A DNA stretch of 16,784 nt from a virus, in the UHGV virus genome UHGV-0338128; one strand, 5' to 3'. Below the pieces are notes generated by a model, which had not been told where the DNA came from, searched no databases, and was given only the letters and a program-made list of their open reading frames with translations. The translations under genes were made by a program, and so were the position numbers. Below, piece after piece: positions 9,916 through 16,784 of this stretch (positions within the stretch are counted from its first letter, which is position 1; every line of letters begins with the position of its first letter).

Positions 9916-10725
9916 TCAATGAACGGTATCGAGCAACTTTAACAGCTCAGGGAATCGGGATTCGAAGAAATGCGGCTGCGTCTCGCGCGGATTTGCGGGA
10001 CTGATGATGTTCTTGCCGAACATGCAACCTTTCGCTGTCAGCGACCAGAATTTTTTGATGTTGTTAATCGTGGTACGGCTGTATCGTTCACGTTGTTCAA
10101 CGATCCCCAGCTTCGCCATCTGGTGATATGCCTGATTAGCTGTCAGGCGGATACCATACTGCTTCAGCAGTGCACTCAGTGACAGCGTGGGGCGGCTTGA
10201 GCCATCAGGCGCGTCAGCAGGAGCATCAATGGCATAGCGCGGTGCCAGATTCGGTAAGCCAACAGCCTCCTGGAGTTTCTGACAGGCACCAAGCACTGAA
10301 GAGTTAGACAGGTTTAATTCCCGGCGCATAAAGTCCAGCAGAATCACACCAGCCTGCATCTTGTCAGCAGCCTGTCCGGATAATTTTTCCGGTGCGCTGG
10401 TTACCATGTCGAAAGTACGGATCACCTTCAGATGGAATGACGGGCTGATCCACATTGCATAGGCATACACCAGTTCTTTGCAGACATACGTCCCCTGGTT
10501 ATTTCCGCCATTAATGACGCTAACTGGTTGATTTTGTTCCAGAGGCGGAATTCCACCCTCGGTGAAAAGTTGTTCAATCAATTCACAGGTTTGCTTATTG
10601 GAGAGCCAGTATTTCGGGCGGTTTTTTTGTTCTCCCCCGGCTGCCCTGTGCAGATCGTTCAGGCTGTAACGCCCATAAGCATCACGACGAACTTCAATAC
10701 CATCAATGACCATCAGATTATTCAT
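9916..10725 (-). CDS. KilA-N domain protein
   Basis: N-terminus MNNLMVIDGIEVRRDAYGRYSLNDLHRAAGGEQKNRPKYWLSNKQTCELIEQ matches the KilA-N DNA-binding domain pattern. GGAGA SD upstream of the ATG at 10725. Confidence 0.7.
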   Translation of the reverse strand: MNNLMVIDGIEVRRDAYGRYSLNDLHRAAGGEQKNRPKYWLSNKQTCELIEQLFTEGGIPPLEQNQPVSVINGGNNQGTYVCKELVYAYAMWISPSFHLKVIRTFDMVTSAPEKLSGQAADKMQAGVILLDFMRRELNLSNSSVLGACQKLQEAVGLPNLAPRYAIDAPADAPDGSSRPTLSLSALLKQYGIRLTANQAYHQMAKLGIVEQRERYSRTTINNIKKFWSLTAKGCMFGKNIISPANPRETQPHFFESRFPELLKLLDTVH

Positions 10726-10744
10726 ACTTCGTTTCTCCTCTTAA

Positions 10745-11134
10745 TCAGGCGGCTGCACCCGCCGTTTTCTCGTACTTACTGATAGTGATCTCGACCTTCC
10801 CTTCCGGGATAACCGGTCCCCACTCCACCAGCATTCTTTTCACCTGGCTGTCGTCTTCCCACACACCTGCGTGGGTCAGGGCGTCAAACAGCGCCTTGTT
10901 ATAGTTATCCAGATCGCGGATCCTGTTATCCGGAGGAAACAACACGATCTCCACTGAAGCAGGTGCCGACGTTGGTTTCGGCAGACGACGTAACTGCTCA
11001 ACTATTGCTGCGCACGCCGCGCTCTGGAATTTTCGCCCCGCCGCGCTTATCAGGCTCTTACCTGCAAACGCCCCTTTGTTAGGGTGTCGCCAGTAAGTGT
11101 TCACGCTGGGCGGGAAAGGCAGGATAAGCTTCAT
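10745..11134 (-). CDS. rusA: RusA-family Holliday junction resolvase
   Basis: LPFPPSVNTYWRH... and IRDLDNYNKALFDALTHAGVWEDDSQV align with E. coli RusA (LPWPPSNNRYYRH..., [27 protein letters not shown]) as I recall it. ATGA overlap with the upstream gene. Confidence 0.85.
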   Translation of the reverse strand: MKLILPFPPSVNTYWRHPNKGAFAGKSLISAAGRKFQSAACAAIVEQLRRLPKPTSAPASVEIVLFPPDNRIRDLDNYNKALFDALTHAGVWEDDSQVKRMLVEWGPVIPEGKVEITISKYEKTAGAAA

Positions 11135-12754: not shown

Positions 12755-12975
12755 GCTGCACCTCCGAGATGCTTCATGTTTTTTCCGGAGCAAAAGGCTA
12801 TAAGCGGCATACTGACGCGGTAATTACGGCCCAGCGGTTCACAAACCACCTTCTGACATTCACGGTCAACCAGGCTAACACGTAGAACATGCCCTGCAGG
12901 CGTGGTGTACCACTGACCCGGACGAGGACAACGGAAAGTCTGATTGGTAAAACGTTTGAAAATATTCCGGATCAT
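12751..12975 (-). CDS. hypothetical small protein (74 aa)
   Basis: ATGA overlaps at both ends (with the Rha stop and the replication-gene start) imply translational coupling within the early operon. Several Cys/His (RCPRPG...RECQKVVCEP). No family recognised. Confidence 0.5.
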   Translation of the reverse strand: MIRNIFKRFTNQTFRCPRPGQWYTTPAGHVLRVSLVDRECQKVVCEPLGRNYRVSMPLIAFCSGKNMKHLGGAA

Positions 12976-14123
12976 TTGCGCCCCCTTACCTCTGAAGGGT
13001 TCAGCGACAAATTTATGAGGCAGGCCAGCGCCGAAGCATCATTAATATAATCATATAAGCTAACAGCCAGCGGAGATTCGGCTTTTGCCAACATAGGATA
13101 AAGCTGCTGCAGCCAGACCTGATGAATTGATGAAATGTAGGAACAGAGAACGCTGGCGTTATGTGCAACGTCGCTCGGTACAGCGGGCTTTGAAAGCTGT
13201 TTCTCCATCTGGTTAAAGGCATTGATATATGCCTCTTTGAACTGGGCAGCACGTTTACCCGTGAAACCCATAGCAAGAAACGCAAAACCGTCGCGTGTGA
13301 TTTGGTAGCAATGAAGTTTGCGACCTGTGCAATCAGTGTAATCACTCACCGAAAAATTGCGGGCAGTGAATGATGCTGAGCATTCAAGCGTGCGGATCTT
13401 TTTCAGTACATCGTCATGACGTTTGGAGAAGAAGTTGGCAACAGCCAGGGATGAAGTAACAACCTGACCATCAACGATGGCAATTTCAGGTTGAGTGAGG
13501 GTTGGGATCGTAGCCATGATGGCAGCCTCTTTGGTGATTTTTAATAACTCACCACCAAGGCTTTCCACGACCTTATTGGTGGTGAGACGTACAGGGGTGG
13601 AAATACCGGTCACCAAAGAACCCGGCCCAACCGAAGTTGGCCCTGCACGCCCCACCATAATTTGGGCGTAATGCTGCTCATGACACAAAAAAACCGCAAG
13701 AGCGCGGTTGTGCGCTTTGGTGAATTCCGGGTTTCCACGCCCGGCCCCCGTTTTATAAGGTGCCTGAACAGTGTAACGTCCCGGAATGGCAGAATCAATG
13801 TGTTGGTGGTCCGTCACACTCAACAAAATCACGCCTGAATTTCCACAAAGGACTAAAGCACTCATGCGGGTAGTCTTTGCGAAGATAGATAACGCGCTGT
13901 GTTTCTGGTTCCCAACGAATAACATGAACATAAAGCCCTCTTCCGTCACGAAACCAGCGGTTAAGTTCCTGCACAACTCGCCCCCCACAGTCAGGTAAAG
14001 TTCTCTGTGGTTACTTACAGCCTGGTGATTTGGTAATCTGCATTCATGCCGTAACAACAGGTGTTCAGAGACGCTGACCACCAGCTGTTGCGACAAACGG
14101 TTATTTGCCGTTAAACTGTTCAT
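12972..14123 (-). CDS. Rha-family phage regulatory protein with about 200-aa N-terminal extension of unknown function
   Basis: C-terminal 181 aa (from MATIPTLTQPEIAIVDGQVVTSSLAVANFFSKRHDDVLKKIRTL...ITRDGFAFLAMGFTGKRAAQFKEAYINAFNQME) match the Rha domain pattern. The frame is open for 202 further codons upstream to an ATG at 14123 that overlaps the CII-like stop (ATGA) and has GGAGA upstream. An internal ATG at 13517 with AAAGAGG SD sits exactly at the Rha domain start. Confidence 0.65.
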   Translation of the reverse strand: MNSLTANNRLSQQLVVSVSEHLLLRHECRLPNHQAVSNHRELYLTVGGELCRNLTAGFVTEEGFMFMLFVGNQKHSALSIFAKTTRMSALVLCGNSGVILLSVTDHQHIDSAIPGRYTVQAPYKTGAGRGNPEFTKAHNRALAVFLCHEQHYAQIMVGRAGPTSVGPGSLVTGISTPVRLTTNKVVESLGGELLKITKEAAIMATIPTLTQPEIAIVDGQVVTSSLAVANFFSKRHDDVLKKIRTLECSASFTARNFSVSDYTDCTGRKLHCYQITRDGFAFLAMGFTGKRAAQFKEAYINAFNQMEKQLSKPAVPSDVAHNASVLCSYISSIHQVWLQQLYPMLAKAESPLAVSLYDYINDASALACLINLSLNPSEVRGRK

Positions 14124-15021: not shown

Positions 15022-15714
15022 ATGAACATAGGAAATCGAGTCAGACAACTTCGCCAAGCGAAGAACATGAAAATCGCCGATCTCGCTGAAGCAATAGGAG
15101 TGGATGCGGCAAATATCTCGCGCCTGGAAACAGGTAAGCAGAAACAATTCACTGAACAAGCCCTGAGTAATATTGCCAGGAGCTTAGGTGTTGATATTGC
15201 TGATCTCTTTACCTCAGACTTCAAAAGTAATACTGTATGTAAAAACAGTATTAGTGAGGATGTTGCGCAGGTGAAGGATGTATTCCGTATTGAAATGCTG
15301 GATATCAGTGCCAGTGCGGGAAATGGCCTTATCCAGGGCGGTGATGTCATTGATGTGATTCATGCCATTGAATACAGAACTGATAATGCTGTATCGATGT
15401 TTGGCGGACGGCCAGCAAATCACATTAAAGTAATCAACGTTCGTGGGGACAGTATGTGTCCAACCATTGAGCCAGGAGATCTCATCTTCGTTGATGTCAG
15501 TATCAATCAGTTTGATGGAGATGGTATCTATGTATTTGGTTTTGATGATAAAATTTATGTCAAACGACTGCAAATGATACCTGACAAACTACTGGTGATT
15601 TCTGATAACCAGATTTACCGTGAATGGGGAATTACCAGCGAAAATGAACACCGGTTTATGGTCTTTGGAAAGGTCTTAATCAGCCAGTCACAAACCCTTA
15701 AGCGACACAATTAA
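15022..15714 (+). CDS. cI: CI-like prophage repressor (N-terminal XRE HTH, C-terminal S24 LexA-like autopeptidase)
   Basis: HTH (MKIADLAEAIGVDAANISRLETGKQ), an Ala-Gly candidate cleavage site (SASAGNG), and a peptidase signature (VRGDSMCPTIEPGDLIFVD ... VKRL). Confidence 0.9.
   Translation: MNIGNRVRQLRQAKNMKIADLAEAIGVDAANISRLETGKQKQFTEQALSNIARSLGVDIADLFTSDFKSNTVCKNSISEDVAQVKDVFRIEMLDISASAGNGLIQGGDVIDVIHAIEYRTDNAVSMFGGRPANHIKVINVRGDSMCPTIEPGDLIFVDVSINQFDGDGIYVFGFDDKIYVKRLQMIPDKLLVISDNQIYREWGITSENEHRFMVFGKVLISQSQTLKRHN
15231..15250. promoter_or_regulatory. near-consensus LexA (SOS) box TACTGTATGTAAAAACAGTA inside the cI coding sequence
   Basis: Perfect TACTG-N10-CAGTA with an AT-rich spacer; falls in the linker between the HTH and peptidase domains of the CI-like protein (codons for SNTVCKNSI). 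Confidence 0.45.
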
Positions 15715-15734
15715 CCCTTACCTCCTCATCAATT

Positions 15735-15756
15735 AGCCACCCGAAGGTGGCTTTTC
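15735..15756 (+). terminator. intrinsic terminator downstream of cI
   Basis: AGCCACC-CGAA-GGTGGCT hairpin (7-bp stem, tetraloop) followed by TTTT, about 20 nt after the cI stop. Confidence 0.6.
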
Positions 15757-15769
15757 ATTACCCATCAAA

Positions 15770-15822
15770 TTGCATATCTCGCAACAAAAACACTTGCATA
15801 ATGCGCAACTTCATTTTATCTT
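15770..15822 (+). promoter_or_regulatory. OL-like operator pair with candidate PL
   Basis: TTGCATATCTCGCAA (15770-15784) and TTGCATAATGCGCAA (15794-15808) share the TTGC-N7-GCAA form of the OR sites. TTGCAT (15794-15799) followed 17 bp later by TATCTT could serve as -35/-10 of a rightward early promoter. Confidence 0.4.
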
Positions 15823-16252
15823 TCTTTCCAGACCAACAAACAAGGTACTAACAAAATTTGGTTGTAACACGGCGTATGGCACATGCGTCGTTAGCGGTCT
15901 GGGGACGTTAAAGGGGACAATCCACTCCTTGCTCGGGCAAACAAACCAGGTAGCCGGAATGTGCAAGTCAATGATGATGCTGATAAGACGCCTAACCAGC
16001 GTGGCGGTTCGGTTTGACACCTGGGAAGAGACCAGGGTGCAACGATGAGGGCATTTATGGAACCGCGACAAAGTGTGGTGCCGTAACTGGCTAAGTGCTC
16101 TCAGCGTTGTGGTGAATGCGCAGGCTGATGCGCGAAAGACATTGCAGCTATTGCGGAAAAGAGCTGTTCGGCGGGGCAATTAAACACCCGTGAGAGTCTG
16201 AAATAACCGCAAGCCGGAGATCAGCACCGGTCACCACAACAGCCACTGCTTT

Positions 16253-16387
16253 GGCGGTACCAGTTTGTACACTTGCTTCCGGCTGGTACCGCTCTTTTTA
16301 CAAAACAGAGAAGAGCATCACCGGACGACGGGCTCATAACCCAATCCATCCGGGCGGCTGCCACCGCAGGTGTTCTTCTCTGTTTTG
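16253..16387 (+). other. structured leader: long-loop hairpin, boxA-like CGCTCTTTTTA, and 14-bp perfect inverted repeat
   Basis: CGGTACCAG (16255-16263) pairs with CTGGTACCG (16283-16291), followed by CGCTCTTTTTA (16290-16300), which resembles boxA (CGCTCTTA / TGCTCTTTAACAA). Then CAAAACAGAGAAGA (16301-16314) is the exact reverse complement of TCTTCTCTGTTTTG (16374-16387). Confidence 0.3.
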
Positions 16388-16436
16388 TGGAGAAACCAAC
16401 CGACCTTGCAGGGTCGATATGATGAGGAGCAGCAAA

Positions 16437-16784
16437 ATGGCTAGCGAACGCAGTACTAATGTGCAGGCATTTATCGGGGAGCTGGACGGCGGCGTATTTG
16501 AAACCAAAATCGGCGCAGTTCTCAGTGAAGTCGCTTCAGGTGTGATGAACACGAAAACCAAAGGTAAGGTCTCACTCAACCTGGAAATCGAACCATTTGA
16601 TGAGAACCGTGTGAAAATCAAACACAAACTCTCATATGTTCGCCCGACTAACCGCGGGAAAATTTCCGAAGAAGACACCACCGAAACGCCGATGTATGTC
16701 AATCGCGGTGGTCGCCTGACTATTCTGCAGGAAGACCAGGGACAATTACTGACTCTTGCCGGTGAACCTGACGGAAAACTCCGC
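16437..16784 (+). CDS. hypothetical early-left protein, 5' part only (runs off the window end)
   Basis: ATG at 16437 with GAGGAG SD 7 nt upstream; open for 116 codons to the window edge (MASERSTNVQAFIGELDGGVFETKIGAVLSEVASGVMNTKTKGKVSLNLEIEPFDENRVK...). Not in the ORF track because no stop is reached. No family recognised. Confidence 0.55.
   Translation, partial: MASERSTNVQAFIGELDGGVFETKIGAVLSEVASGVMNTKTKGKVSLNLEIEPFDENRVKIKHKLSYVRPTNRGKISEEDTTETPMYVNRGGRLTILQEDQGQLLTLAGEPDGKLR

Follow-up and report, generated by a model that had tools for sequence, protein, structure and literature searches.

A conserved three-way-junction RNA behind a terminator-like hairpin in the protein-free early-left leader of an SfV/mEp460-type lambdoid prophage

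In the virus genome UHGV-0338128, of which a stretch of 16,784 nucleotides (nt) was analysed (the window), ~607 nt separate the inferred start of the early-left promoter PL (~15830) from the ATG at 16437, which opens the first credible early-left gene, a yfdP-family open reading frame (ORF). A previous reading of the letters alone, called here the sequence-only reading, had described a long leader of about 600 nt, in agreement with this length, without a recognisable N gene, and for its last part (16253-16436) had offered a nut-like site, an element like the put RNAs of phage HK022, a terminator/antiterminator switch or a small RNA (sRNA). The leader is an array, about 600 nt long and free of protein, of several conserved structured RNAs, and the interval in question is the junction of two of these modules. 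The reading favoured here, held with moderate confidence, is that an sRNA-type terminator hairpin, T (16253-16293, + strand), is followed by a leader RNA with a three-way junction, B (16295-16393, + strand), which would set the 5' end of the early-left mRNA.

Folding of positions 16240-16440 gave -87.8 kcal/mol versus -59.2 +/- 4.5 kcal/mol for dinucleotide shuffles (z = -6.3), and 0 of 200 shuffles folded as well as the native sequence. Element B is closed by a long helix, P1, whose 5' arm (16295-16319) starts in the U-tract behind T and whose 3' arm (16369-16393) ends in an invariant GGAGA pairing with this U-tract (23 pairs, 98.8% paired, six of them compensatory). Arm P2 (16321-16327 with 16347-16353, four of six pairs compensatory; 16321-16353 in all) is capped by the hairpin CGGG-CUCAUAA-CCC (16329-16342). 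Hairpin P3 (16354-16367) consists of GCGG (16354-16357) and CCGC (16364-16367) around the loop CTGCCA, with compensatory changes in three of four pairs, and differs in length and sequence among relatives. The invariant GGAGAAAC begins at 16390, and a small hairpin, hp3 (16400-16417; CGACC and GGTCG around a TTGCAG loop), stands directly before the Shine-Dalgarno (SD) sequence of the first gene; a (T/G)GCAG motif occupies the hp3 position in 69 of 77 GGAGA-carrying viral instances among the matches listed. All these features lie on the + strand. The sequence-only reading had reported a 14-bp perfect inverted repeat enclosing 59 nt at this place. The repeat and the enclosed distance are as described, but the perfect part measures 15 bp by direct reading (16300-16314 / 16374-16388), within arms (16300-16324 / 16364-16388) that are 84% complementary.

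For the comparative analysis, 76 loci encoding YfdP relatives were fetched, one genome per species, and BLAST was performed with the 190 nt upstream of the start codon. Matches were obtained in Mangrovibacter, Atlantibacter, Enterobacter, Leclercia, Superficieibacter, Phytobacter, Kosakonia, Mixta, Izhakiella, Citrobacter, Klebsiella, Pseudocitrobacter, Buttiauxella, Erwinia and Scandinavium, to which a covariance model (CM) added Yersinia, Serratia, Rahnella, Providencia and Xenorhabdus. RNAalifold analysis of 26 relatives from different genera resulted in 41 pairs in five helices, 13 of which carried compensatory changes. Paired cells amounted to 97.7% across the 26 sequences, compared to 42-57% when the 3' partners were slid by one to three columns; sliding left 2-6 compensated pairs, and shuffles had 6.0 +/- 1.2, none of 500 reaching the observed 13. 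Several invariant U.G pairs identify the RNA as the + strand, the strand that PL transcribes. Over 100 loci of prophages or phages conserve the structure with compensatory changes. Folding and covariation had both been proposed as checks in the sequence-only reading, and both came out in favour of structure. The Rfam search proposed beside them came back empty: the leader, searched against Rfam 15 at permissive E-values, gave nothing for B or for the upstream modules A1 and A2 described below. Covariation supports B well as an RNA family, one that neither Rfam 15 nor the literature searched contains. In many B-cores (viral contigs L113, L174, L179, L106 and L096) P3 ends in (A/G)A(C/U)UCCUAAC, which is not present in the P3 loop of the window; this string resembles the anticodon loop CUCCUAA of tRNA-Arg(CCU) and the 16S anti-SD.

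No leader ORF had a Pfam or PHROG match to an N-like protein; leader ORFs matched only PHROGs of unknown function, and did so on either strand of one and the same DNA. The interval with the P3 loop measures 10, 12, 13, 22, 26 or 31-35 nt in the 26 relatives. As these lengths do not differ in multiples of three, they break every frame, and some relatives have stops in all six, so that the conservation is not protein-coding. An arginine-rich ORF of 25 residues at 16116 (MRRLMRERH..., with a CxxC motif) was rejected as coding since it is not conserved in relatives. The claim of a long leader without a protein was thus borne out by both domain searches and the lack of frame conservation. Several 'hypothetical protein' annotations in the leader (for example cdtI orf40, mEp460_036/037, phrog_3651 and phrog_33599) are spurious.

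The T hairpin has a GC-clamped stem of 13 bp and a loop of 15 nt (-20.7 kcal/mol, from repeat arms and fold), and its core arms, 16254-16263 and 16283-16292, form a perfect 10 bp; a hairpin had been noticed here, with a stem put too short at 9 bp. The stem is followed by CTTTTTAC (UCUUUUU), and T is therefore a GC-rich hairpin with a U-tract on the transcribed strand, as in rho-independent terminators. It was overlooked by a simple terminator scanner because the loop limit of that scanner is 8 nt. The corresponding position holds an equivalent hairpin in most yfdP genome loci that bear the motif and, among the matches listed, in 83 of 93 distinct instances from viral contigs. Its stem varies in sequence and length while the U-tract is fixed, and the GC clamp is usually GGCGG.../...CCGCC. 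The boxA of phage lambda is CGCTCTTA, and the string CGCTCTTTTTA (16290-16300, + strand) had been taken for a boxA-like motif. The string is present, but it consists of the last bases of the T stem and the U-tract (TTTTT, 16295-16299) and is not conserved as a boxA: in the 26-sequence alignment the T-run and an AC core are invariant or nearly so and the CGCTC part is not conserved, relatives carrying CGCCCTTTTT, CGCACTTTTTT, GCACCTTTTTT or GGCACCTTTTTT and CGCTCTT being restricted to the close family of the window. In approximately half of the relatives (yfdP loci L012, L029, L036-L039, L042, L051-L054, L077, L079 and others, at ~1300-1365) the T hairpin is longer and has a conserved apical portion, TCTTCAACC...AGGAGG...GAAGATAATGTTCT, that the window does not have. 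In this long type an SD lies in the loop and is followed by an ATG, which two loci replace by ACG or AAG; the short ORF opened by this ATG differs in length among loci and runs through the 3' arm and the U-tract. This could point to translation-coupled attenuation, or its GATAAT could be a -10 element.

Judged by its sequence, 16253-16300 is best read as the Rho-independent terminator closing an sRNA module related to STnc100 and PasD (16094-16300). The sRNA proposal of the sequence-only reading was in this respect partly right, its first hairpin fitting as the terminator of an STnc100-type module. The multi-helix body of the module, A2 (16106-16240, + strand), was delimited by comparisons and by repeat I4, a perfect 10-bp closing helix of GTTGTGGTGA (16106-16115) with TCACCACAAC (16231-16240). 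Within it follow the hairpin GCGCA-GGCTGA-TGCGC (16118-16133), a variable insert and the hairpin CCGG-AGATCAGCA-CCGG (16214-16230). Full-length STnc100 (RF02076; gathering score 47) aligned at 43.4 and 42.4 bits in SfV-like contigs, the T of which hardly differs from that of the window; the terminal hairpin and UUU of the model landed exactly on T. In phage P1 a partial match of 33.4 bits was obtained. By inspection against the model alignment the window has the STnc100 architecture of closing helix, GGUGAAU, internal hairpins, CCGG hairpin and terminator. STnc100 is a multi-copy prophage sRNA with 11 transcribed copies in the enterohaemorrhagic E. coli strain EDL933, one of them verified by Northern blot (PMC5331693), and is related to the Hfq-associated sRNA PasD (bioRxiv 10.64898/2026.05.13.724894). 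Stretches of the A2 type, ~40 nt long and ~90% identical, adjoin tRNA genes or sit in regions free of coding sequences in other phages (T1-like swi2, Taipeivirus UPM 2146, SopranoGao), and the phage P1 copy shows compensatory changes. Two segments of ~30-40 nt (16094-16135 and 16210-16241), which pair mutually (GTTGTGGTG with CACCACAAC), are ~90% identical across T1-like phages, Taipeivirus, Lastavirus and phage P1 (copies in L006, L007 and L008 at ~1501-1608 and in L004 at 1796-1907 and 2060-2190). The A2 hairpin GCCGGAGATCAGCACCGG resembles one in RydB.

IMG/VR was scanned for the loop motif ACGGGYTCATWNCCCAATC, which gave at least 120 stretches. A YfdP relative followed at a fixed distance in 74 of these and was missing in 46, many of which, among the matches listed, carried the same order of T, B, GGAGAAAC, hp3 and SD before other genes. 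At least five types of first gene follow the cassette: YfdP types, MNNPFF/MFNPFF/MHNPFF, MSFIKT, MKLPKF and MNFFKN. The distance from GGAGA to ATG, 48 nt in the window, was 34-57 nt in all but five of the instances listed (124-125 nt), a range that leaves out 38 instances where the regular expression took an in-frame ATGATG. The T-B cassette belongs to the early-left operon and not to yfdP. SfV, SfIV and ST64B carry it as well (131-146 bits with covariance model R1), at the end of gene-poor leaders of 800-1300 nt. Relatives are also present in the ban operon of phage P1 and beside tRNA genes of lytic phages. In the window CM R1 found a single copy of B and none in the PR operon, where the best match reached 11.9 bits. 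The yfdO-yfdP spacer of prophage CPS-53 in E. coli K-12 (L085 3248-3604) contained no T-B cassette (best R1 match 9.8 bits); this cryptic prophage retains the genes yfdP-yfdT, and its leader was lost or replaced. An apparent ORF with a good SD, antisense to PL transcription (ATGACTTTTGATGAAAAAGAACTT...), is present in the SfV leader (L094 ~1040-1220). Situated between orf33 and the STnc100-like module, it resembles a moron that entered the leader. At ~10740-10775 of the window (- strand), at the junction of the PR-operon genes 10745-11134 and 9916-10725, a hairpin GGCGGGTGCAGCCGCC with a GTGCAG loop as in hp3 precedes TGATTAAGAGGAGAAACGAAG-ATG; the hp3-type hairpin is a recurring motif close to the translation initiation region (TIR).

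The most conspicuous part of B is the loop capping arm P2. Its 14-mer CGGGCTCATAACCC (16329-16342) matches positions 29-42 of metZ, an E. coli initiator tRNA, in 14 of 14 nt, a stretch that comprises the whole anticodon loop and the three G-C pairs that mark initiator tRNAs; a rough, post hoc estimate puts a chance match of a 14-mer to any E. coli tRNA in 195 nt at ~2e-3. CAU occupies loop positions 3-5, the anticodon position, in all 26 yfdP loci matching GGG-N7-CCC, where the loops read CUCAUAA (16), CUCAUUC (7) and CUCAUUA, UUCAUAA or CCCAUCU (one each). More distant relatives in Yersinia and Serratia retain T, the base of helix P1 and GGAGAAAC but lose the CAU loop. B as a whole is not a tRNA, and tRNA models recognised no cloverleaf; ARAGORN identified 0 tRNA genes in the window, and Rfam RF00005 gave no match at E <= 10. 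The near-invariant loop points to an extra partner, for which the 30S subunit or IF3, methionyl-tRNA synthetase (MetRS), a nuclease directed at tRNAfMet such as VapC, or the AUG/SD region come into consideration.

In the favoured reading, transcripts from PL would mostly end at T and release an sRNA-like RNA, and polymerases passing T would make B. The long duplex of B would shield the mRNA from upstream RNA, and it is a likely target of double-strand-specific (RNase III-type) processing as well as a structure that could protect the 5' end; such processing is known for the lambda N leader and for T7 RNase III sites. With its 23 conserved pairs, helix P1 is a near-continuous duplex of the length (~20 bp or more) expected of an RNase III site. 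Together, B and hp3 would fix a translation-competent 5' end of the early-left mRNA, a role suggested by the long conserved duplex taking in the U-tract, by its position before hp3, SD and ATG, and by its indifference to the downstream gene. The loop resembling tRNAfMet may be a recognition element for a reader of initiator tRNA or AUG. Anatomy, conservation, covariation, strand, context and non-coding nature of the leader are observed, as is its lack of nut, put and N; that transcription stops at T, that the RNA is processed and that translation is affected in any way is inferred. Several observations weigh against this reading. The T loop of 15 nt is large and may weaken termination. The A2 body of the window gave no STnc100 match in Rfam even at E <= 10, and the relatives score below the Rfam gathering level (43.4 versus 47 bits). 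In contig L191 the B-core lies ~20 nt after PL-type operators, of the same type as the OL-like repeats of the window, with no T before it, which is a put-like position. Finally, the strong conservation of the tRNA-like loop is unexplained by a purely structural or processing role.

B could instead be a translational operator whose YUNR U-turn loop (CAU) kisses the AUG or SD of the first gene or binds a factor that reads tRNAfMet (30S P site/IF3, MetRS), to set translation of the early-left operon, which we regard as a minor possibility. The spacing of 34-57 nt to the start codon, kept whatever the gene among the matches listed, and the invariant arrangement of GGAGA, hp3 and SD agree with such a role, and the loop is complementary to AUGAG, which lies in the SD (16422-16426) or the start codon (AUGAGY) of many relatives. 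However, so short a match should arise by chance at Met-Ser starts and at SDs containing GAG, many unrelated starts in the window match equally well, and a window-wide search for complementary targets of the loop returned only generic AUGAG start sites. Loop and TIR do not covary, and the Yersinia and Serratia relatives keep helix P1 and GGAGAAAC without the CAU loop.

Of the same low order of probability is a functional analogue of HK022 put, a cis-acting RNA that would make RNA polymerase resistant to terminators in place of N. N is absent from the phage, B is tied to the PL operon rather than to one gene, its compact fold has two hairpins, the B-core of L191 stands after the operators much as putL does, and put-like antitermination was speculated on by the authors describing LLS, a related yfdP-type phage without N (PMC12315714). 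The put-like element offered by the sequence-only reading received no support from homology. The covariance model R2, built from six put RNAs (HK022 putL and putR, HK639, phiEt88, CobraSix and S9-5) and run with filters off, recovered HK022 putL at 97.8 bits and putR at 55 bits, while its best match in the window reached 7.7 bits (E 2.5) and lay elsewhere; the BLAST families do not overlap either. A likeness to put seen by eye at 15866-15940 (shared CATGCGTCG) was also ruled out by BLAST and CM R2. Two copies, in the PL and PR operons and upstream of terminators, are characteristic of put. Here B is a single copy without a PR-side partner in the window and stands downstream of T, the only strong terminator of the leader. 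The 3.3 kb following the cassette in mEp460 contain no strong intrinsic terminator on the + strand, so processive antitermination is not obviously needed, and the tight, fixed spacing to the start codon would be unexpected for put or nut.

Somewhat more doubtful is the excision of B to act in trans as a tRNA mimic, either as a decoy for host nucleases or enzymes targeting tRNAfMet (VapC-type; anti-defence) or as an sRNA. The 14-of-14 identity to the anticodon stem-loop with its three G-C pairs speaks for it, as does the fact that PL transcription yields this element before any other RNA, where anti-defence functions are typically found. VapC toxins of enteric bacteria cut tRNAfMet (PMC7180214), pseudo-ToxI is a precedent for an RNA decoy (PMC3475682), relatives of B are found among the tRNA genes of phage P1 and T1-like phages, and the long duplex of helix P1 would permit excision. 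Yet only the top of the anticodon arm is covered, C28.A42 being mismatched, and a decoy needs no tight coupling to the downstream TIR. No less speculative is the idea of B as a new class of phage tRNA mimic, be it an excised tRNAfMet-arm decoy (VapC-type) or a 30S P-site loader for the early-left operon comparable to an internal ribosome entry site.

Also considered in the sequence-only reading, and improbable, is a switch of riboswitch or attenuator type in which terminator and antiterminator pairings exclude each other. A conserved three-way junction with invariant loop nucleotides does stand beside a terminator, and the long-type T of about half of the relatives, with its AGGAGG-N9-AUG and a short ORF through the 3' arm, hints at translation-coupled attenuation. 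But a sensor should lie upstream of the terminator and compete with it. Here T precedes the junction, T and helix P1 are adjacent and compatible, and no conserved competing pairing was found; the T of the window is of the short type without SD or AUG, and in two relatives the ATG of the long type is ACG or AAG. A possible antiterminator pairing of AAAAGAGC (16157-16164) with GCTCTTTT (16291-16298), repeat I6, was taken as chance, there being no conserved equivalent in the A2 of SfV. Hardly credible, and within the reach of sequence analysis already refuted by comparison, is a nut site for an unrecognised N-like protein: although CGCTCTT in the PL leader agrees with 7 of 8 nt of the lambda boxA, it is terminator stem plus U-tract and specific to the window's family (CGCCCTTTTT and GCACCTTTTTT in relatives), there is no Arg-rich ORF and no second site in the PR operon, and in place of a short boxB hairpin with a GNRA-like pentaloop the 5' arm of helix P1 follows the motif.

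The remaining leader contains further structured modules. A1 (15856-16037, + strand; homologues, alignment A3) is a conserved RNA of ~180 nt with invariant blocks such as ATGGCACATG and GGTAGCCGGAAT, folded by RNAalifold into 32 pairs, seven of them compensatory. It is ~79-87% identical to the trnI-ban spacer of phages P1, P7 and D6, which is unannotated in phage P1, to a spacer of epsilon15-like phages, where the copy lies directly upstream of tRNA-Arg, and to Klebsiella phage SopranoGao (copies at L004 3001-3185, L005 2501-2745 and L006 1264-1440). Between A1 and A2 a small B-like hairpin unit (16038-16110, + strand; 5' arm GCAACGATGAGGGCA, 3' arm TGCTCTCAGCGTTGT) is predicted from the minimum-free-energy fold of the whole leader, and its 3' arm is the conserved GTGCTCT... 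segment common to swi2, SopranoGao and UPM2146. In phage P1, three successive B-like units follow tRNA-Thr (L004 1490-2200). The first has a T-arm-like GGGUUCGAAUCCC; the second carries the anticodon-like loop GUCAUAU and the third UUCAUAU, and behind each of these two stands an A2-like unit. CM R1 scores the third at 39.8 bits. The canonical T-arm of the phage P1 B-like unit is GGGTTCGAATCCC. This region is annotated as the opposite-strand ORFs plp and upl, the B-like units being on the strand of the ban operon, and the plp/upl annotation may need another look. From these distributions the modules are mobile among very different phages, and their appearance suggests an origin from, or at least an association with, tRNA.

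The window represents the immunity region of an SfV/mEp460/cdtI/CPS-53-type lambdoid prophage; its identity is 99.9% with Escherichia phage PhiR63_1 and 98.7% with mEp460, and its positions 15700-16784 were matched in 3030 of 5426 complete E. coli genomes. A cI-like gene (15022-15714, + strand) and its terminator (15735-15752, + strand) are followed by OL-like operator repeats (direct repeat D5), TTGCATATCTCGCAAC at 15770 and TTGCATAATGCGCAAC at 15794. By its hexamers, PL would be placed within these (15770-15822, + strand), with the -35 element TTGCAT at 15794-15799 and the -10 element TATCTT at 15817-15822; a promoter scan of the window did not call these hexamers. Phage comparisons showed mosaic breakpoints at ~15850, ~16106 and ~16252. 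At its other end the leader meets the strong SD noted in the sequence-only reading, GAGGAG at 16424-16429, and the ATG of the yfdP-family gene (16424-16439 in all, + strand; yfdP in RefSeq, phrog_204). Two in-frame ATGs at 16419 and 16422 lie ahead of the SD-served ATG (MMRSSK-MASER...), and the yfdP start may differ between gene callers; SD spacing favours 16437.

An antirepressor-type locus was also observed, with matches at Rfam gathering level to C4 antisense RNA (83.6 bits, 13575-13662, - strand) and IsrK (64 bits, 13687-13763, - strand). Both fall inside an ORF of 383 residues (12972-14123, - strand), annotated in mEp460 as 'regulatory protein Rha / antirepressor', whose start is probably annotated too far upstream. 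The region looks like an RNA-controlled antirepressor (immI-like) locus of the P1/N15 type in the PR operon. A transcription-termination-mediated immunity of SfV was reportedly described by Roberts et al. in 2007 and may concern either the T-B leader or the C4/IsrK locus.

For the lambdoid phages without N (SfV, mEp460, cdtI, ST64B and Stx2c phages), these results remove nut and put homology as early-left candidates and define a conserved RNA cassette in the leader. The cassette is a covariation-supported RNA family new to Rfam 15, with a striking mimic of initiator tRNA. A wider set of structured RNA modules travels between very different phages, often beside tRNA genes, and points to a phage RNA biology of processing, sRNA production or interference with host functions directed at tRNA. 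If the tRNA-mimic reading were true, the ~600-nt leader would be an 'RNA island' of mobile modules common to P1, T1-like phages, Ackermannviridae and epsilon15-like phages.

Compared with known systems, the locus shares features with several. Like HK022 putL and putR, B is a structured RNA with two hairpins in an early leader of a lambdoid phage without N, in one relative right after PL, whereas it lacks homology to them, is present once, downstream of a terminator and within a long duplex, and keeps a fixed spacing to the start codon. In the lambda N leader and in T7, RNase III cuts duplexes, with consequences for how the adjoining mRNA is translated or how stable it is. These sites and B have in common an irregular, extended duplex located between early promoter and first gene, but here there is neither nut nor N, the conserved three-way junction that the duplex caps bears a tRNA-like loop, and cleavage is only putative. 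With initiator tRNA (metZ/W/V/Y), B has the anticodon stem-loop CGGG-CUCAUAA-CCC in common, but neither the D arm nor the acceptor end. The thrS operator mimics the anticodon arm of tRNAThr, and the tRNA-like hairpin of B is likewise placed in a 5' leader; unlike in thrS-type operators, the downstream genes are not synthetases. The upstream module shares with STnc100/PasD a body of several helices with (U)GGUG...CACC(A) as its closure, the motif GGUGAAU, the CCGG-loop-CCGG hairpin, a GC-rich terminator with U-tract and multi-copy carriage by prophages, the full 206-position model aligning in SfV-like relatives and ending on T; it differs in its first hairpin and long insert (16106-16240) and in lying inside a PL leader, followed by B, which is no part of STnc100. 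The ban operon of phage P1 differs in that its units have no preceding U-tract terminator, lie outside any PL leader and are unannotated or overlapped by the opposite-strand plp/upl, but it carries homologues of all three modules, with A1 between trnI and ban and the A2- and B-like units after tRNA-Thr.

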